IMG/VR virus record: IMGVR_UViG_3300028800_000061
Span: 95,824-159,823 of that record
Length of the DNA stretch: 64,000 bases
Direction: 5' to 3' (one strand)
DNA from: a virus
Positions 377 to 21,298 of the stretch are shown here, piece by piece. Within the stretch, counting starts at the first letter, position 1, and each line of letters starts with the position of its first letter. A program made the position numbers and the translations under genes. The notes beneath the pieces were generated by a model, which saw nothing but the letters and a program-made list of their open reading frames with translations, did not search any database and was not told the origin of the DNA.

Positions 377-3300
377 CTATTTGGTTGCGAGCGTGAGACC
401 GTTAGTACCGTTCCTGCGGTTGTAACGCAGGGTGTACTTCTGGTCAGTAGCCTGAAGATTGCTGCCGGTCGGCCATTGCATCTTCAACGTCAAATTCAGT
501 GTCTGCTGGGAAGATGTGACACCGAACCCGCCCGCTCCTTGCGATGCGGCCAGGGCCACGCCTGTGGCCGGGTGCACAGTCCCAGGTGCAGTTGCGCTGC
601 TGAGCGCCCTCATGGCAGCAGTCACATGCGGCAGCCCGGCGATGATTCCTTGCGCGAGTCCTTGTGACACCATCATCCCGTGCTGGTACATCACCGTCGA
701 TGGCGACTTGATCCCCAGATCTTTCTTGATCTGGCTGACCATGCCTTTAGCGATCTTCGTCATTTCCTTCGTGATCGCTTTTTCTTGCGCTTCCAGCCCG
801 GATAGGAAACCCTTCCCGGCCTGGGCGCCCGAGTCATACATGGCGTTAGCGGCGGTTTGCCCAAGCGACTTAGACGCCGAAGTGATACCAGACTCGGCTT
901 TGTTGATCGCCTTAATGTTCCCCGGGACCTGCAATAGCGCCTTCGCGATGGCCAGGCCCTGCACGGGCCCGGCCTGGATGATCTGGTTGATGTAATCCTT
1001 GTTCAGCCCCAGTTTCGACAGTTGGCCGATCGCCGACTTGAACTGGTTTATCTGGGACAGGTCGGCCTGCAAGTTGGCCAGAATGTTCTGCGAGGTGATC
1101 GGCCCGCTACCCGCTGCCGACACGAGATCAAACGTGCCAGCGACGCTACTGGCCGTGTTCGTGGCGAACGTTTTCGCCTTGGAAATCGTTGACATGATCG
1201 CGGATCGTTTGGTGGCGAGGGCTTGCAGTTTGTTGTTGTCAGCCTCGATCCACTTGGTTACGTTGCTCTCCGTCTGAGAGGAGATATCGCCCGCGTCAAA
1301 CGCTTCCTTGATGTAGGTGACCAGTTTCCCGGCTGCCGATTTGACTTTCGACGCAGTTCCCTCAAGTCCCGCGACTATGCCGTTGCCGATTTCAACCGCA
1401 ATGTTCTGCATGACCTTCGACGGTGAGCTGATCCCGAGCACGCTCTTGATTGACGATATGGCCGCGCTGCCGATACTGCCTGCCGCGTCACGTACGGCCC
1501 CGAGGGACGCGGTGATTCCGTGAACGAAACCCATGATCAGGTTCTTGGCCAGGTCGTACAGCAACGTGACCGCACCGTTGAAAATGGTCCGCATCACGTT
1601 GAGGATGCCGTGGATCTCATCCGAGGTCAGTTTTTTCAGGTCGGTCCACGCTTTCGCCCAGTGCCCGGTGATGATGTCCAGGAACAGTGCGATGGCGTCG
1701 CGGATTATGGCCAGCTCGGCGCGGATTAGCGCGGCGACAGTATCCCAGACTAGTTTAACCGTGTCGCGTATCAGGCCCCACGCGATAGTCCATGCGGCTT
1801 TAATCACTGCCAGGTCGATTTTGATCGTCGCGATTATCTCGGCGAGATACGTCTTGACGATGAAACTTACAACCGCCCAGACGACCCGTGCGACCTCTTC
1901 GATTTCCTTGTGGTTCTGCTCCCACCACACCCTGAATGCTGCAATCTGCTGCTTCACAAACACAAGCGGGCCGTGAACGAACCAGTCGATCACGGCACCC
2001 GCGGCGCGCATCGCCACCGCCCAGGCGGATTTGAAAGCGTTCGCGACATCATGAACGATGTCACGGACCAGTTTGCTGTGCTCATACAGTTCGTACAGGC
2101 CAAGCGCGAGTGCGCCGATCGCAATGATCGCGACACCGACGGGGTTAGCTGAGAGAACTGCGCCAAGGCCCTCCACCGAGGCGGTGACCAGCTCCACCCC
2201 CACCGCGATAGCGATAACCGCCCCAGCGAACGCCGCCATCTTCTCGTGGTGGGAAATGAACTCCATGAACTTGTCAACCGCCCGCACGACTTTGGTGAAG
2301 ATGGGCAGCAGTTTCGTCCCGAAAGTGATGACCAGGTTCTCGACATCGGCGAGGAACTGAGTCCAGGCGAAGTGCGCTGTCTTCTCCGTCTCAGACCACG
2401 ACTTGCCGTATCCTGATACCGCCTTGCCTATGCCTTCGTACTTGGTTCTGATGTTGTCCAGATTCGACATCAGGGACAGCATGGCTTTGTCGGACCGGCC
2501 GCCGCCGAACAGTTTCGCCATGACCTGCGAGGCCTGGGCTGCTGACAGCCCGGACGCTTTGAAGGCTTTCTCCATGTCCGACAACGCGATGTAGATGCCG
2601 TCAGGTTTCCGCAGATCCGTGGCGATCTTGTTGACTGTCAGCCCGTAGGAATTCATCACATCGGCCAGCGACTTGTTTTTCAACGTGATATTGTCGGTCG
2701 CCAGTCCAAGTGACCGCAGGAACGTGTTCGCCTCCTTCGACCCTGATGTGACCATGGAAAGCCCCATGGTCAACCGGGTTGAAGCTGTCTCCGCAGTGTT
2801 ACCCCGGTCAGTCAGGTACGCCAAGGCCGCACCCATTGACCGGATCGAAATGCCCATGGCCGCGGCGGTAGGCGCCCAGTTCTTAATTGACTGGTTAAAG
2901 TTCTGGAAGCGCATGTCGCCCTGGCCGACGATCGCGTTCAGCAACCCGGCGGTCTTGGCGGCGTCACTGGTGTTCAGGTTGAACGCCTTCATCACCGATG
3001 ACAGGGCGTACGTTGTGTCTTCCAGATCGGCGCCGTGGATCTGCGCGAGCTTGGCCGAGTTGGCGACAGTCGCAAGCGAGTTACTCAGACTCAGGCCAGC
3101 GCTAATTGGGTGGTAGAGAGCCGTCGCGATGGCTGTGCCAGATTCCCCAGTCTGGTATCCGATCTGGAGGATCTTCTGGGACAGTGCGGCCATGCTTATA
3201 CCGGTCAAGTGCGCGGCGGTGTACAACTGGGTGACGGCAGCCTGAAACTTCATCGCTTTGTCGATGGAGTAACCCACGGCGACTGCGACTCCGGCGATGG

Positions 3301-4066
3301 CCAGCTTCGTTGCTGAGCCGAGTCCGGCCATCGCGCCGGCGTTCCGCTCGTTCGCGGCCGCTTCCTCGTTGGCCATATCCCGTGTCAGCCGCTCGTCCGC
3401 TGCCAGGGTCTGCTGAGCTTTCGCCGAGGTCGCCGCAGCCCGGGCGGACGCTATGTGGGCATCCCGGAGTGCCGCTTGCACCTCGAGGGCGCTCTTGGCC
3501 ATGTCCGCTTCGAGCGCCTCAGCTTCAGCGAGCTTGGATTCGGCGGCCGCCGCTTCAGCCGCCGACGCAGCCAGCGCTCTCTGCTCCTCCGCTGCTGCTG
3601 CGGCGGCGGCGCCGGCCCGCTCAGCTCCGGCAGCCGCCTCAGTTGTCGCCTCGCCGGCGGCCTGCGCACCGGCGGCGAGGCGCGCTTCCGCTGCGGCAGC
3701 CTCGGATGCGGCGTCGATTGCGCGGGCGAGCCCATCCACCAGCAGCCACTCGGCTGAGGTGAGATCTGTTTCGGCGGCGACGGTTTGCATGGCCGCGGTG
3801 GACAGTTCCTCTTGCGCCGCGGCCTGCTCGGTCGCGGCTGCTGTCGCAGCCTCGGATGCTGCGGTAGTGTCGGCGGCGCCGGTTGCGATCCCGCCCGCGC
3901 TGACCGCACCAGCGGTTGCCTCGGTTGATGCGCGAGCCAGATCTTGCACCTCAGCGATTGAGGCCATCAGCCGCTCGTTGCTGGCGATCATCTCGTCGAT
4001 GCCCGCAACCCATTTACTGGCATCCGCGACAAACTCTTCGATCGCTGGTGGCAGCAGTTCAGACAC
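377..4066 (-). CDS. tape measure protein (TP901-type core)
   Basis: 1229 aa, Ala-rich helical; core motif LSSVMKAF..GDMRF..AAAMGIS; Trp-periodic repeats; follows tail chaperones. Confidence 0.93.
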   Translation of the reverse strand: MSELLPPAIEEFVADASKWVAGIDEMIASNERLMASIAEVQDLARASTEATAGAVSAGGIATGAADTTAASEAATAAATEQAAAQEELSTAAMQTVAAETDLTSAEWLLVDGLARAIDAASEAAAAEARLAAGAQAAGEATTEAAAGAERAGAAAAAAAEEQRALAASAAEAAAAESKLAEAEALEADMAKSALEVQAALRDAHIASARAAATSAKAQQTLAADERLTRDMANEEAAANERNAGAMAGLGSATKLAIAGVAVAVGYSIDKAMKFQAAVTQLYTAAHLTGISMAALSQKILQIGYQTGESGTAIATALYHPISAGLSLSNSLATVANSAKLAQIHGADLEDTTYALSSVMKAFNLNTSDAAKTAGLLNAIVGQGDMRFQNFNQSIKNWAPTAAAMGISIRSMGAALAYLTDRGNTAETASTRLTMGLSMVTSGSKEANTFLRSLGLATDNITLKNKSLADVMNSYGLTVNKIATDLRKPDGIYIALSDMEKAFKASGLSAAQASQVMAKLFGGGRSDKAMLSLMSNLDNIRTKYEGIGKAVSGYGKSWSETEKTAHFAWTQFLADVENLVITFGTKLLPIFTKVVRAVDKFMEFISHHEKMAAFAGAVIAIAVGVELVTASVEGLGAVLSANPVGVAIIAIGALALGLYELYEHSKLVRDIVHDVANAFKSAWAVAMRAAGAVIDWFVHGPLVFVKQQIAAFRVWWEQNHKEIEEVARVVWAVVSFIVKTYLAEIIATIKIDLAVIKAAWTIAWGLIRDTVKLVWDTVAALIRAELAIIRDAIALFLDIITGHWAKAWTDLKKLTSDEIHGILNVMRTIFNGAVTLLYDLAKNLIMGFVHGITASLGAVRDAAGSIGSAAISSIKSVLGISSPSKVMQNIAVEIGNGIVAGLEGTASKVKSAAGKLVTYIKEAFDAGDISSQTESNVTKWIEADNNKLQALATKRSAIMSTISKAKTFATNTASSVAGTFDLVSAAGSGPITSQNILANLQADLSQINQFKSAIGQLSKLGLNKDYINQIIQAGPVQGLAIAKALLQVPGNIKAINKAESGITSASKSLGQTAANAMYDSGAQAGKGFLSGLEAQEKAITKEMTKIAKGMVSQIKKDLGIKSPSTVMYQHGMMVSQGLAQGIIAGLPHVTAAMRALSSATAPGTVHPATGVALAASQGAGGFGVTSSQQTLNLTLKMQWPTGSNLQATDQKYTLRYNRRNGTNGLTLATK

Positions 4067-4069
4067 GGT

Positions 4070-4504
4070 TCACGGCCTGATCACGACAGATTTGAACCGG
4101 CTCCGGGCGGTTCGGCTCAGAGCGCCGGAGGCTTCGATCCGTTCCTTGGCCGGCCGGAGATATGGCCGCGCGGGCAGCGTTGAGCCGCGGCCCGCGGTCC
4201 CTCCCAGTTCCTGTATCCGCGCGTAGGGGACAGTGCCGCCGACAGCTACCGACGACCGCGCGCCACCTGCGGGGCCCTGCTTGATGGTGATCGAGGCGCG
4301 CAAGTTCCCGCTGATCCGCGCGGGCGGCTCACCAGGCGGCGACGGCGTCGGCGTGTGAGGTGCGTGCGACCGGCGGGACAACTCGTCCCGCTGCACCTCG
4401 GAAACCATCAGGGATGCCATGGCGAGCGCGGCCGCACGCGCCCCCCAGGGTGCCCGGTCGCGTATCCTCTGCAGTTTCTCGTTGATCTCGCGGATGCTTG
4501 CCAC
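4070..4504 (-). CDS. HK97 gp10-like neck/tail completion protein
   Basis: SPPGEPPARISGNLRASI...VPYARIQELGG...LPARPYLRPA motif. Confidence 0.8.
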   Translation of the reverse strand: MASIREINEKLQRIRDRAPWGARAAALAMASLMVSEVQRDELSRRSHAPHTPTPSPPGEPPARISGNLRASITIKQGPAGGARSSVAVGGTVPYARIQELGGTAGRGSTLPARPYLRPAKERIEASGALSRTARSRFKSVVIRP

Positions 4505-4526: not shown

Positions 4527-4754
4527 TCATTTCGGGTTGGACATGATCTGGGTGGCGTAATCGCGGGCCTCAGCGATTACCGGTGCGACAGTCGCCCAAT
4601 CGGACGGGAGTGCGTCTACTTGCTCGGGAGTCCACCCGTATCGCTCGGCGAACCAGGACCACTCGATGTACTCGTCAGGGAGCGGGCAGGCGGCGCCGGG
4701 TCGCCTGAGGAAGTAGTCGGCAAGACGCTGCCTGAGATGGTCTGGGGTTTTGGG
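4527..4754 (-). CDS. tail assembly chaperone -1 frame extension (gpGT-like)
   Basis: The -1 frame after CCCAAAA (4748-4754) reads ...DHLRQRLADYF...WFAERYGWTPEQVDALP... to TGA at 4527; GWTPEQV is typical of T domains. Confidence 0.8.
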   Translation of the reverse strand, partial: PKTPDHLRQRLADYFLRRPGAACPLPDEYIEWSWFAERYGWTPEQVDALPSDWATVAPVIAEARDYATQIMSNPK

Positions 4755-5071
4755 CCGTTCAGCACCCGGTCGTAGACCGGACGGACCGCCTGGTACAAGG
4801 CGTCCTGATCGTCCATGGAGAGGTTGTTCAGGATCGCGTCACCGTCAACCGCTTGCCCTGGCAGCGGCTGCGCCAGCGTCCAGCCGATGATCATGCGTTT
4901 CAGCAGGGCATACATGATGCGGTCTTCGAGTTCGGCGGTGAATACCCGCGACTCGTCCCCGTTGATGGTGATGGAGATCGCGCCGCGGGCAGCTCGCCGG
5001 TCTCCTCCGTTGGGCTCGTCACGCAGATCGGCGTGATTGCCGGCGGACAGTTGCACGCGCAAACCAGTCAC
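4616..5071 (-). CDS. tail assembly chaperone (gpG-like, unshifted product)
   Basis: Lies between tail tube and tape measure; contains slippery site C CCA AAA. Confidence 0.8.
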   Translation of the reverse strand: MTGLRVQLSAGNHADLRDEPNGGDRRAARGAISITINGDESRVFTAELEDRIMYALLKRMIIGWTLAQPLPGQAVDGDAILNNLSMDDQDALYQAVRPVYDRVLNGPKPQTISGSVLPTTSSGDPAPPARSLTSTSSGPGSPSDTGGLPSK

Positions 5072-5125
5072 AGTCCTTTCAGGCAGGTAGCTGAATACAG
5101 CAGATGGTTTGTTGAAGGCAGCCGG

Positions 5126-6373
5126 TCAGTAGTTGACGACCGCGTTTGTGACCTGCACGACCGCCGGTGAGTACCCGCCTGATGGGCCAGCGTTAGTGGT
5201 GTTAGCCACTGCCTGGACCGTCATGTTGTACCCGAAGGTCGTTTTCGAGTCCTCGATCTGGCCTGTGTCATACGCGGCGACTTGCGCGCTGATAACCACC
5301 TGGACCAGGTTCGCGCCGACCAGGCCGTTGGTTGTCGTGATGGCCAGTGTCGGCTGAGTGTTGTTCAGGTACTCAAGGAACGGCGACTCGTCAATAGCCG
5401 GGTCGTACATGAGCGAGAATGTCGCATCAAGCTCACCGCGTGGGATGGCGAACGGTGTCTGCTGCCCGGCGTTAGTGAACTTCGGGTCAACTTTCCGGAT
5501 GAACGTTGATTTCCATTCCATGATGTTGTTCACCGGGGAGCCGCCGACACTGATTGTTGTCTGCCAGTCCGCGTACGGCTTCACGGTCGAAATAGTCGCA
5601 GTCGGGGGCGCCCCGGCCACCGCTGACGAGAACGATGTGGCTTTCCCGTCCCACATCAGCAGCGCTGTTGCGGTACCTGTGAATGACACTTCCGAGAAGC
5701 ACGTGTACGCGTAAGCCCGTGCGCCCACTGATGCGGTGACCCCGGTGTAATCGGTGAACGTGTGCGTCGGTGGCTGCGCCGTCGACCAGCCACCTGCACC
5801 GAGCCCGTTGTTCAGCAGGGAGAAGTTGTGCACGTAGGTGGTGACCGCGCTGTACGGGGTGACCGCCGCTCCGGACAGGTGGTTCTGGTACAGGGGGCTG
5901 CTCAGCGTCACCGTGGTGGACACCACGTTGGTGACAGTCCGCACCTCCTCTGCGGTGGTCCCGAGGGCGCCGACCGCGATAGTGGTGCCGTTACTGATGC
6001 CAGTCGCCGACGTCACGGAGATGGTGGCCGCGCCGGCTGTGTAGCCGGAGGCGAGAGTGGTAGGGGTGGCGGAGGTGCCGTTAACAGCCTGCCAGTAATC
6101 CCCGAAAATGTTGACCAGTGGGTACCCGACACCGTCACCGAAAACCGGGGCTTCCATTTCGAGATCACCGATCTCAACGCCCTGGATCAGGTTGTACAGC
6201 CCGGCCATGGCGTTCCGCCATGCGGTGTCTTTCAGGTAGGTGATGTTGTCTTTGGGTGTGAATTTGGTCAACGGCATGGTTGCCGTGGGATCGACTGCGG
6301 TTCCCGGGGTGACCTCTTTCGCCACGCCGATAAACCTTCTGGTAACCGGGAAGACAGCACTTGCGGTGCTCAT
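5126..6373 (-). CDS. major tail tube protein
   Basis: 415 aa; FIGVAKEVTPGT N-terminus, beta-rich; upstream of chaperones. Confidence 0.85.
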   Translation of the reverse strand: MSTASAVFPVTRRFIGVAKEVTPGTAVDPTATMPLTKFTPKDNITYLKDTAWRNAMAGLYNLIQGVEIGDLEMEAPVFGDGVGYPLVNIFGDYWQAVNGTSATPTTLASGYTAGAATISVTSATGISNGTTIAVGALGTTAEEVRTVTNVVSTTVTLSSPLYQNHLSGAAVTPYSAVTTYVHNFSLLNNGLGAGGWSTAQPPTHTFTDYTGVTASVGARAYAYTCFSEVSFTGTATALLMWDGKATSFSSAVAGAPPTATISTVKPYADWQTTISVGGSPVNNIMEWKSTFIRKVDPKFTNAGQQTPFAIPRGELDATFSLMYDPAIDESPFLEYLNNTQPTLAITTTNGLVGANLVQVVISAQVAAYDTGQIEDSKTTFGYNMTVQAVANTTNAGPSGGYSPAVVQVTNAVVNY

Positions 6374-7189: not shown

Positions 7190-8149
7190 TCAGATGACCC
7201 GCCGGTACGGCTGGACCAGCGCCTGAGCTTCTTTCATGTACCAGCCAGGCGTGTTCACCGAACTGTCCCCGTGACCCGGTACGGCCTGGATGGTGGTGGC
7301 CGTCGCCCCGCGCACCAGGGCCTGGGAGACAGCGAACAGGATGGCCGCTTGGATGACGGACTGCGGCAGGGTGGTGGCCATCACCCCCACCGGGTGCTTG
7401 TAGGCCAGCGGTGAGGACAGGGTGAGCAGGCCGGGCCCGGACAGTGCGGTCGCGTTGGTGACGGTGAACGTCTCCTGCGCGCCGGGGTCGTGCAAGGTGC
7501 CGGTGGCGCCGGAGACCATCCCCGGCGGCGGTCCCCACCCAGTGCAGTCGTCCACTTGAAGGGTGACGTCATCCTCTGCGGCTGCAGCGGCAAGTGACCC
7601 GTGCGGCCACCCGTTGATGTAGGTGGTTTCGACTTGGTAGCCGCTCCGGCCGCCCCACCACCACGACGCGTACCCGGGTGCGAGAAGGACCGCCGAGCCG
7701 CCATCACCGGAACCGCCAGGGCTGGTGGTGCCGTACACCCCGATGACCGGTTTCTCGATCTTGTAACCGGTCGCGGGGATCGGGTTCCACTCGGCCGGGA
7801 ATGTGACCGTCGCGGCTACCCGGCCGGAGAGCACCGCGGTTACCGGCGAGCGGGACAGCAGCAACCGTGCGATCCCGGGCCCGAACATCTGGAATCGCAG
7901 ATCTCCTGGCCCGAACAAGGTCTCGGTGTCCACCGTTGCGCGCAGCGGCTGGTTGCAGAACCCGTCGATCATCGAGGTAGCCCGGCGGCACAAGTTCAAC
8001 TGCTCATCGAATTGCTGCTGCTCGGTCGGCCTCGATCCGGCCCCCACGGTGTTCCACACCACACCTGTAGGGGCGGCGATCAGCATCGCCGGCAGTACGT
8101 ACGGGGTGCCCGGGCTGGCTGGGACACCGGCCGGGTTGTACTCATTCAC
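7190..8149 (-). CDS. head-tail adaptor/connector protein
   Basis: RRATSMIDGFCNQ...TTYINGW...LPQSVIQAAIL...LVQPYRR pattern of head-tail connectors; GTG start chosen at 8149. Confidence 0.7.
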   Translation of the reverse strand: MNEYNPAGVPASPGTPYVLPAMLIAAPTGVVWNTVGAGSRPTEQQQFDEQLNLCRRATSMIDGFCNQPLRATVDTETLFGPGDLRFQMFGPGIARLLLSRSPVTAVLSGRVAATVTFPAEWNPIPATGYKIEKPVIGVYGTTSPGGSGDGGSAVLLAPGYASWWWGGRSGYQVETTYINGWPHGSLAAAAAEDDVTLQVDDCTGWGPPPGMVSGATGTLHDPGAQETFTVTNATALSGPGLLTLSSPLAYKHPVGVMATTLPQSVIQAAILFAVSQALVRGATATTIQAVPGHGDSSVNTPGWYMKEAQALVQPYRRVI

Positions 8150-8480
8150 CGCGGGCCACAGCCAGGTCCTCGGCTGGCAGCACGAGGATCTTGAATCCCA
8201 GGCCCTGATGTTCGGCAATCTCAGTGGCCCGCTGCTGGTATTCCTGCACTTGCGCCGGGGTGCAATCCGGGGAAATCCGGACGATCAGCGTTTCGCCAGG
8301 AGCGACTACGGTGACGCACTCGCGCAGCAGATCCCGCATCTCATCTGGGGTCAGGGATGACACTGGCGGGAGCACCATGAGCCGGTGCCTGTCCTGGGAA
8401 GCCATCTGCTCCTGAAACCGGTCACGCCACTCCTCTAGCTGCGGCTGAGTGAGCCGGGCGCCGTCATCCCAACTGTCCAT
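8142..8480 (-). CDS. hypothetical protein
   Basis: Tightly packed ORF in the head-neck operon, MDSWDDGARL... Confidence 0.55.
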   Translation of the reverse strand: MDSWDDGARLTQPQLEEWRDRFQEQMASQDRHRLMVLPPVSSLTPDEMRDLLRECVTVVAPGETLIVRISPDCTPAQVQEYQQRATEIAEHQGLGFKILVLPAEDLAVARGE

Positions 8481-17189: not shown

Positions 17190-18383
17190 GTGCGCACTGT
17201 GGACGATGCGGAACTCAAAACCAGGTACTTGCACGGTGAGGCAGTCGGTGTCATAGCTGCTGCCGCCGGGATGAGCAGAAAGAAGCTGCGGCACAGGCTG
17301 ATAAGCCTCGATGTACCTCTCCGTGCCAGGACCGAGCTGATCGTGCAGCGTGCCCGGCAACTCGACGGGACTGATACCGACGCCCGCTATACCGCCGGAG
17401 CGGGAATCGCCGAGCTTGCTGTCGATCTCACCGCCGAGCTCGGCGTGCACATCAGCGAAGGGGTTGTCCGCACATGGCTTGAAATGCGGGATGTTCCCCT
17501 CCGGGGCCGGTCAGCAGCAGCGAAACTTGCCTCCACTGCCCGGACCCGTGAGCAGCGCATGGAAATGACCGCCGCGGCGCGTGCGAGCACCCGGGGAATC
17601 CCCGTGCCGATCGAACGGCGACTGGCGGCCGCTATCGGCAGGGAGAACCCGCGGCCGGGAAGCTTGCCTCCCGCGAACCGGGATCTGGCGCAAATCCTGC
17701 AGCGGTCCGGCCGGAGAGTTACCACGCTCAAAGCCGCTGGGCCGTACAGCATTCCCGTTGCGACCGGCACCACGGGCATCGACCTGACCGCCAAAAGCAC
17801 CGAGTGGATGCTGCGCGTACGCGGCCCGCGCTTGAGGTACCTGCTCGAAACCGGATGGGATGTCCTGTTCCTCCGCGTCATGTCGACCAGGTTCCCGATC
17901 CCGCCCGCGATGGCAGATCTGGTTTTCGACCGGCTCGCATGGCGCGACGGGCACCCGGACTCCCCACGCCGGTTCATGGTGATCGACCGGAACGGCCAGA
18001 TCATCCGGCAAGGATTCGCAGACGACTTGCCGCCATCCAACCTGGGTGCCACATCACGGATGATGCGTAAGCAGGACTGCGGCAGCCAGTTAGATGACAT
18101 CCGCCGGCATCATCGACTGCCCGGTGTCTCCCGGGTACAAGGAGCACCGGCAGTTCGGGTGAGCCGGCGGCTGATCATCACCGGAGGGAAACTCATCCCC
18201 TACCGGGATCAGCCCGGCCGCCTCGTTGCCATCGCACACGGCGCACACCGTTGCGTCCCCAGCGGTGGCCCATCCGACCGCCGCGATCCTGGCCTGCTGG
18301 TAGTACGCCAGCGCCGCCAAGGACATCGACCAGGTCACCTCGGTCTGGGTCACGACCAGGGCGGCAGGCTCATTTCCGAGTAG
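17190..18383 (+). CDS. HTH-repeat plus DUF559/Vsr-like nuclease-fold protein (homing-endonuclease-like, degenerate)
   Basis: Two HTH-like repeats ending in DVPLR; AAGPYSIPVA...RLRYLLETGWDVLFL; antisense to head module; 3' end overlaps gpF gene. Confidence 0.55.
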   Translation: MRTVDDAELKTRYLHGEAVGVIAAAAGMSRKKLRHRLISLDVPLRARTELIVQRARQLDGTDTDARYTAGAGIAELAVDLTAELGVHISEGVVRTWLEMRDVPLRGRSAAAKLASTARTREQRMEMTAAARASTRGIPVPIERRLAAAIGRENPRPGSLPPANRDLAQILQRSGRRVTTLKAAGPYSIPVATGTTGIDLTAKSTEWMLRVRGPRLRYLLETGWDVLFLRVMSTRFPIPPAMADLVFDRLAWRDGHPDSPRRFMVIDRNGQIIRQGFADDLPPSNLGATSRMMRKQDCGSQLDDIRRHHRLPGVSRVQGAPAVRVSRRLIITGGKLIPYRDQPGRLVAIAHGAHRCVPSGGPSDRRDPGLLVVRQRRQGHRPGHLGLGHDQGGRLISE

Positions 18384-18836
18384 CCCATCGAGTACGCCAG
18401 TGAGTTGCCCTGCGGTGAGCCCACCCGCAACCGCAGCGAGAAGGGCTTGCTCCAGCCGTGTCACCCGCGTTGCCACCAGGCCGCCCACCCGCCGGTCACC
18501 CTCGTCAAGGATCGACTGCAGTGAGCTGTCCGGCGCGTCCAGGTCGATGCTGGTGATCTGGACGGCCGAGTTCCGGCCGAGCCGCCAGCCGTCCGCCCAC
18601 AACTCCCGCATGATCCTGGTGAGCGCCACAGTTAGCGCTGCGGTAACCCCGGTTCGTTGCAGGTACCGTTTCGGGCCACGCGGCCGCGCTGCTGCACCTG
18701 CCCCGTTGCCGCTAGCCAGCCACCCGGCAGCGAAATCGGCGGGCAAAACGCCCTGCAGTTCCCTGGCGAGCCGGCCAGCGTACTGGGCTGCTAGCTGCCG
18801 GTCCCGCTCCCACCCGGGCCAGTCAGGGCTTTTGGG
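18090..18836 (-). CDS. Mu gpF-like minor head protein domain (probably reached by -1 frameshift from portal)
   Basis: TQTEV...WATAGDATVCAVC...PPAHPNCRC; frame opens at CCCAAAA (18830-18836) two codons after a TGA. Confidence 0.8.
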   Translation of the reverse strand, partial: PKSPDWPGWERDRQLAAQYAGRLARELQGVLPADFAAGWLASGNGAGAAARPRGPKRYLQRTGVTAALTVALTRIMRELWADGWRLGRNSAVQITSIDLDAPDSSLQSILDEGDRRVGGLVATRVTRLEQALLAAVAGGLTAGQLTGVLDGLLGNEPAALVVTQTEVTWSMSLAALAYYQQARIAAVGWATAGDATVCAVCDGNEAAGLIPVGDEFPSGDDQPPAHPNCRCSLYPGDTGQSMMPADVI

Positions 18837-21298
18837 CTGCCATCATCCCCGCCACCCTTGTTGAGCTTGGCCCGGTTCATCGCCCCGTCCCACGGCCCGG
18901 TGTCCGTGCCCACAACACCGACCCATGCGAGGGTGCTTGTTTTGCCTGCCCGTTTGAGAGCGAGAGTCCGGTGCCAGCCGTCAGCGATCTCGTACTTCGC
19001 CTGGCCGGGTACTTTCACCAGCACGACCGGCGCGAGTTGCGTCCCGGCCCGGATGGATGCGGCGATCGCTTCTACTTTCGCCGGGTTGCGTGCACCGCCC
19101 GGGCGGCGGGCCATCTCGATCCGGGACAGTGCCACGGATACCGGCCCATGCCACCGTGCATCTTTGACCCACTCCAGCACGGCGGCCGGGTAGTGCCGTG
19201 CCAGGTACGCGTACACCTCATGTGTCAGATCGGCGTGGCTGGTCTGCGCCGCGATCTCTGCTGTGCTCTTGGTGCTCAGCATCGACCGGGCTACATCGCA
19301 CACCTGATCGGCGGTCAAGCCCTTGCCCAGGTCCTCCTCGATGCTGGCGAGCAGTGCAGCGGGCAGATCTTGCGGCGCCCACCCGGTGACTGTGCCGCCT
19401 TTGCGCAGGTGATTGCGCAGCAGATCCAGTTCTCGCAGTTGCCCTTTCCTCGCGGAGGTTGGAGTGGCGTTCGCGGAGCCGACCGCACCGGAGCGCGCAC
19501 CGGAGTGCGCCGGGGTGCCCCGGCCGGACTGGCTGACCGCGCCGCCGATTGCCCGCGGTGCCGGCTGCTGGGCGACCGTGGCGGGCCCCGCTGGTGGCGC
19601 CTGCTGCGGGGCGGTCGACGGGCCGCTTGTTCCTGCGATCTGCGCTGGATCCAGCGGTGCAGGTGTGGGCCGGGAGCCGGTGACCTGCGGTGCGGTCGGC
19701 GCACCAGCGAACGGGACGAAACCCTCGCGGACAGTCGCCCATCCAGGGTCGGAGGTGACAGGAAGGTTCCACGGGTCGCGGCCCAGCTCGACACGGGCCT
19801 CATCGACGGAGCACAATCCTGCGCTAATCTGCTCCACAAGAAGGGTTGTCAGAGTGGCGGCGTCTTCATCTTCTTCCAATCCTTCCCATTGCCACTCAAG
19901 GTCTTCCTGCCCGCACACATCTTGCAAGATCCTGTCGAATACCGCGGCCTTCAGCCACATTAGCAAGGGGACGGTTCCCTTGCGCTCCTGAATGTCCTGC
20001 CCGGCTTTCGCCATCTGGTTCGCCGCACCGACACTCTGGGTCGCGGAGACACGCGGTGAGATGCCCAGTTCCATGGGCATGACGGAGAACGCCATGCACA
20101 CCTGGGTCATGATGATCTCATCGAACTGGTCGGCCAGGCTCGCGGGCTTCTGCGGGTCCACTTTCGACCCGCCTGGGAGAACAATGATTTTGTGCTTCCA
20201 TGCTTGATCACCGGCAAGGGCATTCAGCGCGTCTTGAAGCTCCCGGATCTGCTGCGGGGTCATGTTCGTGTCACCCGGCGAAACGAACAGGCCAGGAATG
20301 GATCCCTCTTGGAAAAAGTTCAGCTGATACTGCTGCCGGTTCAACCCAGCCATGACCGGGATAATCGCCCGCTCAATGGGCGCCTGACCGTACGGTGTCC
20401 ACGTGCGGGCGGTGTACGGCAGGTACATCAGCTGATCGCCCCGGTACTCCGCGATGAGCCCGTCATCTGCGGTTTCCTCAACCAGCAGCGTCATCAGGTC
20501 CACACGCGGGACACCGTATTCGTATTGCTGATAGGCTGGGTTGGGCGGTGCTGGCACTCCGCCAAGCACATCCACCAGTGGCCGGATAAGTGTCCCGTCG
20601 ATAAGATCTAGCGCGGCCACGTTTGATCCGAGCAGGCCCTTGTTCCGCACTTTCGACGGGTGCACGTACAGCGCCAGGGCGTCGGTAACGAACACTTCCT
20701 CAAGCAACGCGTCGAACCATGAGGAAAAATCGCCGTAGCGCGGATCGGGCTGGCGGAAGAACTTGACAGCCTGCGCCCTGCGCTCCGCGAAGTCGGCCAT
20801 GCCGCTGTGCGAGCCCCGCAACGATTTCGCGGCGTCCCTTGTCAGGGCAATGTTCCACCCGACGCCACGCAACTCCGATTTGCGCAATTCGATGCACGCA
20901 CGGGCGACACTGTACAGGTCCGCGAGAGTCCGCAGAGTCTGGAAGTCGGCGAGCTTTCCAAGGCCTTCCGTGCCGGGCATGCCCATAGGCATGTCCCAGC
21001 CGATCGGGTACTGGAAGCGCCTTATCGGCGGCCTTTCCTCACCCGGTTCCGGAGTGTCAATCGGGACTGGCTCTATGGGGGCGAGCGGCCCGAACATGCC
21101 GGACAGGAATGTTCGCCAGTCTCGTGGCAGCCCGCCGTGCTGGCCGGCTGACCGGCCGGAGGTCCACTCGTTGTAAGAGGCAACGAGCGGGGACGGGCCC
21201 GGGCTGATCGACGGCGGTGTGACCGTGGCGAATCCGCCTGACCGGCCAGCGGCTGTCGCTTTCAGGGTGCGGGTGATGGCGCGCAGGTCCGTGGGCAC
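18791..21298 (-). CDS. portal protein with C-terminal ParB-N-like domain
   Basis: LRTLADLYSVARACIELRK, PYGQAPIE, FFQEGSIPG, VCMAFSVMPMELG, SVDEARVELG; C-terminal APVVLV...YEIADGWHR. Confidence 0.9.
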   Translation of the reverse strand: MPTDLRAITRTLKATAAGRSGGFATVTPPSISPGPSPLVASYNEWTSGRSAGQHGGLPRDWRTFLSGMFGPLAPIEPVPIDTPEPGEERPPIRRFQYPIGWDMPMGMPGTEGLGKLADFQTLRTLADLYSVARACIELRKSELRGVGWNIALTRDAAKSLRGSHSGMADFAERRAQAVKFFRQPDPRYGDFSSWFDALLEEVFVTDALALYVHPSKVRNKGLLGSNVAALDLIDGTLIRPLVDVLGGVPAPPNPAYQQYEYGVPRVDLMTLLVEETADDGLIAEYRGDQLMYLPYTARTWTPYGQAPIERAIIPVMAGLNRQQYQLNFFQEGSIPGLFVSPGDTNMTPQQIRELQDALNALAGDQAWKHKIIVLPGGSKVDPQKPASLADQFDEIIMTQVCMAFSVMPMELGISPRVSATQSVGAANQMAKAGQDIQERKGTVPLLMWLKAAVFDRILQDVCGQEDLEWQWEGLEEDEDAATLTTLLVEQISAGLCSVDEARVELGRDPWNLPVTSDPGWATVREGFVPFAGAPTAPQVTGSRPTPAPLDPAQIAGTSGPSTAPQQAPPAGPATVAQQPAPRAIGGAVSQSGRGTPAHSGARSGAVGSANATPTSARKGQLRELDLLRNHLRKGGTVTGWAPQDLPAALLASIEEDLGKGLTADQVCDVARSMLSTKSTAEIAAQTSHADLTHEVYAYLARHYPAAVLEWVKDARWHGPVSVALSRIEMARRPGGARNPAKVEAIAASIRAGTQLAPVVLVKVPGQAKYEIADGWHRTLALKRAGKTSTLAWVGVVGTDTGPWDGAMNRAKLNKGGGDDGSPKALTGPGGSGTGS

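Follow-up and report, generated by a model that had tools for sequence, protein, structure and literature searches.

A predicted −1 frameshift site between the portal and MuF minor head protein frames of a metagenome-derived phage, conserved in two polarities among its relatives

We have analysed a stretch of 64,000 nucleotides (nt) of viral DNA (the window), which corresponds to positions 95,824 to 159,823 of the 159.8-kb IMG/VR virus record IMGVR_UViG_3300028800_000061 (65.7% G+C). The analysis concerns the boundary between the gene for the portal protein and the reading frame of a MuF (SPP1 gp7-like) minor head protein lying directly behind it. An earlier note on this DNA had proposed that the second protein, there called gpF, is fused to the portal by a programmed −1 ribosomal frameshift. 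All the features at this boundary are on the minus strand, where the portal frame reads ...GGC AGC CCA AAA GCC..., and they are:

18791..21298, minus: portal open reading frame (ORF) P0001 with a weakly ParB-like C-terminal domain, 835 amino acids (aa); Pfam Phage_portal, phrog_2662.
18841..18859, minus: G-rich Shine-Dalgarno (SD)-like stretch AAGGGTGGCGGGGATGATG, 5-23 nt upstream of the heptamer, holding a −1-frame TGA and a +1-frame ATGATG.
18830..18836, minus: slippery heptamer C_CCA_AAA, with X_XXY_YYZ phasing, where the −1 shift is proposed to occur.
18791..18793, minus: 0-frame stop TAG, 12 sense codons past the heptamer.
18090..18830, minus: −1 frame continuation, MuF / SPP1 gp7-like minor head protein module, 246 codons and a stop.
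18744..18746, minus: TTG, the first canonical start codon of the MuF frame, located within conserved coding sequence; internal initiation here is possible but unsupported.

The assignment of P0001 as a portal comes from a match to PF04860 Phage_portal that exceeds the gathering cut-off (E 7.7e-15, 55.3 bits against 39.1), from a match to phrog_2662 'portal' (E 2.7e-48) and from 64% identity to the portal P0011 of a related locus, L001. The ParB-like label of its C-terminal domain is weak: phrog_1033 is matched with an E of 2.7e-5 (residues 734-786) and ParB_N (PF02195) with an E of 0.027 and 14.9 bits, below the cut-off of 26.3, and a DGWHR motif is present. The sense codons between the heptamer and the TAG encode ALTGPGGSGTGS, and the unshifted product is a portal of 835 aa with the C-terminal end GSPKALTGPGGSGTGS. 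Every element of what the earlier note had observed in the letters is confirmed, namely a C CCA AAA at 18830-18836, in slip phase and ahead of the portal stop, a TGA at 18845..18843 which closes the −1 frame two codons ahead of the CCC, and a −1 frame in which no ATG, GTG or TTG occurs for 30 codons past the heptamer, the TTG at 18746 being the first. CCCAAAA occurs twice in the window, where about 4 copies are expected, and 7 times in the whole 160-kb genome, so that its count in the window carries no meaning by itself; both window copies lie on the coding strand and in slip phase, and behind each of them the −1 frame is open.

Past the heptamer the −1 frame begins PKSPDWPGWERDRQLAAQYAGRL, also written SPDWPGWERDRQLAAQYAGRL (SPDWPGWERD...), passes through PPAHPNCRC and ends with the stop at 18092..18090. 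The Phage_Mu_F family (PF04233) matches this ORF with an E of 8.9e-6 and 26.9 bits, slightly below the cut-off of 29.6; several PHROG head-morphogenesis families match it as well, and there are homologs with precomputed PF04233 matches. Furthermore, phrog_2662 covers both ORFs at separate profile positions, P0001 at 34-411 and P0002 (the MuF ORF) at 562-707, which indicates that the portal and MuF ORFs are the two halves of one fused family. The homology to MuF starts 3 codons past the slip. Indeed, no MuF in the protein collection is closer than P0004, which has 43% identity to the −1 frame over 95% of the latter; their alignment begins at −1-frame residue 6 and spans the start-less N-terminus, with PDWPGWERDRQLAA in the window corresponding to PQWPGWWRDEQLAA in P0004. 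The start-less 30-77 N-terminal residues are conserved as protein in P0004 and in other relatives, including the WPGWERD noted earlier, which is kept in homologs as WPGWxxD. Because this motif and about 30 residues ahead of the TTG at 18746 are conserved, coding begins upstream of any start codon; judged by this protein conservation, the start-less stretch of the −1 frame is coding.

This conservation bears directly on the possibility that MuF is made separately from an internal start (the TTG at 18746, a later GTG or the ATG chosen by the gene caller), with the heptamer playing no part. The public gene call is indeed a form of 173 aa from an internal ATG (P0003), weak AGGG-like stretches are found ahead of the TTG, and relatives such as L001 and L017 express MuF separately. 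However, the recorded call would drop 77 conserved residues, and initiation at any of these sites would leave 30-77 conserved residues, WPGWxxD among them, upstream of the start. Moreover, the relatives with a separate MuF have a proper ATG or GTG and an N-terminal segment of about 32 aa which is absent from the window, as seen in the contig of P0004, where MuF has its own ATG three bases past the portal stop. Separate initiation would also leave unexplained the conservation of the heptamer at the nucleotide level and the at least 12 start-less loci described below, and we consider it improbable; the ~30 conserved residues ahead of 18746 argue in particular against independent initiation at that TTG. 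The earlier claim that the protein is made only as a fusion is thus upheld as to the lack of a start of its own and to the slip as the most likely route, although some internal initiation may take place.

The reading that we favour, and to which we assign a probability of about 0.83, is that MuF is produced by −1 programmed ribosomal frameshifting on C_CCA_AAA, resulting in a portal-ParB-MuF fusion of 1069 aa. Ribosomes translating the portal/ParB-like ORF would reach the heptamer with tRNA-Pro on CCA and tRNA-Lys on AAA, and a fraction of them would slip back one base to CCC_AAA and continue in the −1 frame. The slip product would comprise 823 + 246 = 1069 aa, with the junction ...GSPK/SPDWPGWER... 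and the predicted junction peptide GSPKSPDWPGWER, and the remaining ribosomes would stop 12 codons on to release the 835-aa portal. One gene region would in this way supply two kinds of subunits for the portal dodecamer, plain and MuF-carrying, in a ratio set by the efficiency of the slip. The fusion size of about 1070 aa given in the earlier note matches both this computed length and the single ORFs of 1063-1065 codons found at this place in the nearest relatives.

These relatives were obtained by a portal search which is blind to the heptamer, and form a small sample. The closest portals, those of L007 and L005, have about 76% identity to that of the window in the portal core, and in L005, L007, L008 and L011 portal, ParB and MuF form a single ORF of 1063-1464 codons. 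In all four of these fused relatives an in-phase C CCA AAA is present inside a linker that is otherwise unalignable, in the contexts GGC CCA AAA GCG, GAC CCA AAA GCA, CGC CCA AAA CTG and GGC CCA AAA GGA; the heptamer lies likewise directly ahead of the MuF module in L006, L013 and L014/L015. The relatives with a separate MuF that has its own start (L001/L002, L017, L004 and L010/L032) have no heptamer. The other searches gave little: blastn of the 5-kb region against the phage collection returned no match and tblastn against the same collection only distant relatives, with at most 31% portal identity for cultured phages, a related-locus search with the single MuF protein and a genome-contig scan with the portal alignment returned nothing, and a metagenome scan returned 7 loci only, mostly incomplete.

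We have also scanned IMG/VR for CCCAAAA with TGGCCNGGNTGG (WPGW) no more than 30 nt behind it and sorted the hits by the open frames on both sides of the heptamer, 80 of at least 119 matching stretches being listed. Among the matches listed there are at least 45 real junctions with an in-phase heptamer, a figure that speaks for recurrence and phase rather than prevalence, as the pattern presupposes the heptamer. At least 31 of these are fused junctions, in which heptamer and WPGW share the same frame, and at least 12 loci from at least 4 lineages have the arrangement of the window, with MuF in the −1 frame; no real junction in the third phase was found among the matches listed, the third-phase hits being random short ORFs. 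In the window-type loci the portal frame is open for 111-837 codons upstream and stops 7-23 codons past the heptamer, whereas the −1 frame with WPGW and MuF is open for 186-385 codons, and the spacers differ among these loci (5, 14 and 20 nt). Counting the window, 13 window-type loci are listed, and in 8 of them a stop closes the −1 frame 1-5 codons ahead of the heptamer and no start occurs between the heptamer and WPGW. Far from being absent from homologs, the heptamer ahead of WPGW thus recurs in phase and at the same junction in the scanned loci as in the four fused relatives. The earlier proposal that the slip yields the MuF fusion holds for the window and for at least 12 loci, but in most relatives the situation is reversed, the fusion being the 0-frame product, and there a slip would have the opposite effect and truncate the fusion.

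The same site is present in cultured Arthrobacter phages. Gp3 of phage Sonali (L157 2144-5131) is annotated as 'portal and MuF-like fusion protein' and has Pfam portal, NUDIX and MuF domains, and gp3 of phage Mufasa8 (L160 140-3142), which belongs to a different genus, is 55% identical to it in this part. Both have a slip-phase C CCA AAA at codon 737/738, between the NUDIX and MuF parts, preceded by GGTGGT and with a −1 stop 9 codons on. It is the only slip-phase heptamer inside each of these genes of about 1000 codons, Sonali having another only at codon 1. In RefSeq, the gp3 gene of Mufasa8 is labelled 'MutT/NUDIX hydrolase'. These two phages make the frameshift idea directly testable at the bench.

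Conservation of the cassette is evident at the nucleotide level, and in both polarities. In these ORFs CCA accounts for 6.0% of the proline codons and AAA for 17.8% of the lysine codons, and because both are rare, conservation of a Pro-Lys dipeptide does not account for the invariant CCA AAA. In the fused forms the −1 frame stops at a median of 4 codons past the slip, against 53 elsewhere in the same ORFs, and 49% of them have this stop within 2 codons, compared with 4% (combined p 6e-13), typical junctions being CCC AAA AGG TGA and AGC TGA. The product of a slip in these forms would thus be a portal that is cleanly cut short, as in dnaX. Upstream of the heptamer, the anti-SD duplex energy of the window's stretch AAGGGTGGCGGGGATGATG is −10.9 kcal/mol, compared with −5.35 elsewhere in this ORF (p 0.03). 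For the family as a whole, the energy for pairing of the 20-odd upstream bases with the 16S 3' tail is −10.3, compared with −5.0 kcal/mol at other positions (Kolmogorov-Smirnov 1.6e-21), and −10.7 compared with −7.7 for synonymous recodings (Wilcoxon 2.7e-9). In agreement, T is found at the synonymous positions −6 and −9 in 25 and 22 of 50 loci, where about 4-5 are expected. This enrichment thus defines a pattern G[AG]TG[AG]TG (GATGATG or GGTGGTG) at −11 to −5, which corresponds to 18841-18847 in the window and into which the window's own stretch fits. The pattern reads as part of a candidate SD-like stimulator, and by analogy with dnaX the upstream stretch probably stimulates the slip.

The same pattern creates a +1-frame ATG or GTG in about half of the loci, and often a −1-frame TGA. 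In the window, the result is a mini-ORF of seven codons in the +1 frame relative to the portal (ATG ATG GCA GCC CAA AAG CCC TGA), which is preceded by the G-rich SD-like stretch and ends in a shift-prone CCC_TGA, and MuF could in principle be reached from it by a +1 shift at CCC_TGA_C. An ATG or GTG in the +1 frame at −7 to −5 is indeed present in 23 of 50 family loci. However, past this upstream ATG or GTG the +1 frame in relatives is neither consistently short nor stop-terminated (median 31 codons against a null of 39), and a conserved mini-ORF was therefore rejected; moreover, such a shift would not reach MuF in the relatives of fused polarity, the common feature being the heptamer in portal phase. 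We regard this route as hardly credible. Slippage of the RNA polymerase was likewise set aside, the four A's of the heptamer being far below the runs on which transcriptional slippage is known to occur.

The frame break itself could instead be an artefact, or a recent inactivating insertion or deletion in the run of A's. The window comes from a metagenome-derived virus record, and a change of one base would give a tidy result in either direction: with five A's, portal, ParB and MuF would be fused in frame as in L007, and with three the portal would end in ...SPKP, MuF starting from an overlapping ATGATG (MMAAQSPDWPGW...). Against this, a contig from ENA (L159, 1737 nt, with a MEGAHIT-style name) is 100% identical to the window from 19539 to 17803, the four A's included, although it may share source reads with the IMG/VR record and so be less than fully independent of it. 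In addition, the at least 12 window-type loci from at least 4 lineages show the same polarity with spacers of 5, 14 and 20 nt, and among the other long genes seen in the window none appears interrupted. A scan of IMG/VR for the exact junction with three, four or five A's gave no other copy. An assembly error is unlikely in view of the identity of L159 and of the window-type loci.

A maximum-likelihood tree of 47 MuF modules extends this argument to a recent lesion. The tree needs 5 changes of polarity, and well-supported branches impose 4 of them; the window falls together with the fused L005, L007 and L011, and an internally diverged clade of 8 members keeps the window's polarity, which a pseudogene would not. 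For these reasons the −1 arrangement appears as a stable and repeatedly evolved state and not as a one-off lesion, and we hold an artefact or a recent inactivation to be very improbable. Overall, the comparative data disfavour each of the alternatives considered, namely an internal start, an indel or assembly error, a +1 shift and transcriptional slippage. Under −1 frameshifting, flips of polarity around a retained heptamer suggest that both products are needed and that the efficiency of slippage is high enough to make a flip tolerable. We infer that slippage occurs at the heptamer and that both products enter the portal ring. The frequent flips also suggest a high frameshift ratio, which is not necessarily the few copies per ring that the earlier note had envisaged.

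A number of observations weigh against −1 frameshifting, beyond the possibly shared reads of L159 and the heptamer built into the scan pattern. The fused relatives L019/L020, L023 and L024 have no heptamer before MuF, which means that the signal is not obligatory; as they also lack the Pro-Lys dipeptide, Pro-Lys looks like a consequence of the heptamer and not the reverse. The SD-like stretch of the window is no stronger than what its Gly/Asp-rich peptide gives under synonymous resampling (p 0.6). Finally, the RNA fold downstream of the heptamer in the window is not better than that of shuffled sequences (z −1.1), and the signal for downstream structure across the family is weak to modest.

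The second, and only other, CCCAAAA of the window lies in another gene:

4748..4754, minus: CCCAAAA in slip phase within a 151-aa ORF (5071..4616); probable tail assembly chaperone site of the G/GT type.

This site is followed by a −1 extension of 73 codons, ending at about 4530, and the ORF lies two genes upstream of the tape measure gene, whose identification at 4066..377 (minus) is confirmed. The ORF at 5071..4616 is a probable tail assembly chaperone by position only, since neither candidate chaperone ORF matches any PHROG family. Accordingly, the earlier statement that the portal heptamer is identical to the chaperone slippery site is correct as to the heptamer, with the chaperone identity being positional. 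A gene similar to tail-completion/Neck1 proteins (4070-4504, minus; phrog_5, E 7e-10) is unusually placed between the chaperone ORF and the tape measure gene. A further copy of CCCAAAA in slip phase lies outside the window, at position 76014 of G000 (minus) and about 19.8 kb before the window's start; it is inside an open frame of 360 codons, with 55 open −1 codons behind it.

Some of the related loci have further peculiarities. In L020-L022 the order of the domains is portal-MuF-ParB and an in-phase CCCAAAA, at about 6723, precedes the ParB-like domain and not MuF, with a −1 stop after 3 codons; on this basis, the cassette may mark boundaries of cargo domains more generally. The portal ORF of L017 (4200-5308) has an in-frame insertion of about 370 codons between query portal residues about 401 and 397, which could be an intein or an inserted domain. 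In L001 a gene for an HNH endonuclease directly follows the separate MuF, and an AbiEii-family gene is found a few genes on (4681-5811 and 7648-8301).

Programmed frameshifting in tailed phages is textbook knowledge for tail assembly chaperones and for a few cases of capsid decoration, not for the portal. The present arrangement can be compared with a number of known systems. In the −1 frameshift of E. coli dnaX, which produces tau and gamma, the slippery sequence A_AAA_AAG is accompanied by an upstream SD-like element and a downstream stem-loop (PMC5009743). As in dnaX, one gene would encode a subunit of a multimeric machine in two lengths, the −1 frame of the fused-polarity relatives ends 1-2 codons past the slip, and an SD-like stretch is placed about 5-20 nt upstream. 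Unlike in dnaX, the heptamer is C_CCA_AAA, the gene and the hosts are different, there is no clear downstream hairpin, and the polarity of the window is inverted, the slip lengthening the product. In this last respect the window resembles the −1 frameshift of the tail assembly chaperones of the lambda G/GT type (Xu, Hendrix & Duda 2004, as cited in PMC7302621), in which the upstream ORF is prolonged, by a slip close to its end, into a start-less ORF, giving a minor fusion that virion assembly requires. The probable chaperone site of the window even uses a heptamer identical to that of the portal site. However, the pair here is portal and MuF, in the head and not in the tail, and the family also includes the truncating polarity and separate genes.

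Head proteins offer closer comparisons. The −1 frameshift of the major head protein of Lactobacillus phage A2 (gp5A/gp5B; Garcia et al. 2004, cited in PMC10885494 and PMC5009743) has been shown experimentally and supplies the head with a second component, which is essential. The A2 case differs in that it concerns the major capsid protein, adds a C-terminal extension only and occurs in a low-GC host. The slippery sequence of A2 is said to be C CCA AAA. Portal-MuF fusion genes have been described, without recoding, in Microbacterium phages of clusters EA3, EA5, EA8 and EB (PMC7302621). The window shares with such annotated actinobacteriophage fusions the order portal, optional enzyme domain and MuF, but these (the Microbacterium clusters and Sonali gp3) have been described as plain fusions, whereas in the window each half has a frame of its own. 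In SPP1 the portal gp6 and the MuF-family protein gp7 are encoded by separate genes (PMC6316719). Both protein families and their adjacency are thus the same as in the window; unlike there, the SPP1 genes have their own starts and no frameshift. SPP1 gp7 is a low-copy head protein that binds the portal, which makes a covalent link between portal and MuF functionally plausible.

We have found no published description of this site or of any other recoding site in the portal, in line with the remark in the earlier note that a frameshift at this position is not part of the textbook picture: the paper on the Microbacterium fusions (PMC7302621) reports no frameshift, and the word 'portal' is absent from the accessible portions of the 2016 recoding review and from the PRFect survey of SEA-PHAGES genomes. 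What is new is the gene pair and the design in two polarities, as the mechanism is the classical one of dnaX, lambda G/GT and A2.

With less confidence than for the site in the window, we lean towards a broader view in which the members of a large clade of high-GC phages, probably actinophages and for the most part uncultured but including the cultured Arthrobacter phages, use one conserved recoding cassette, made of an SD-like stretch and C_CCA_AAA, where the portal, whether or not it has an enzyme domain, gives way to MuF. The cassette would make plain and MuF-bearing subunits, and at least 4-5 changes of its polarity would have taken place. Only a very efficient slippage, in the order of tens of percent, would leave such changes near-neutral, and their repetition around an unchanged heptamer amounts to a natural experiment on frameshift efficiency. 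If the signal is real, it would explain why many metagenomic phages have MuF genes that lack a start or are called too short, as with the 173-aa call here, and would guide the annotation of portals and their cargo. It would also show by what means the number of bulky internal cargo domains (MuF, ParB or NUDIX) on a dodecameric portal can be controlled.

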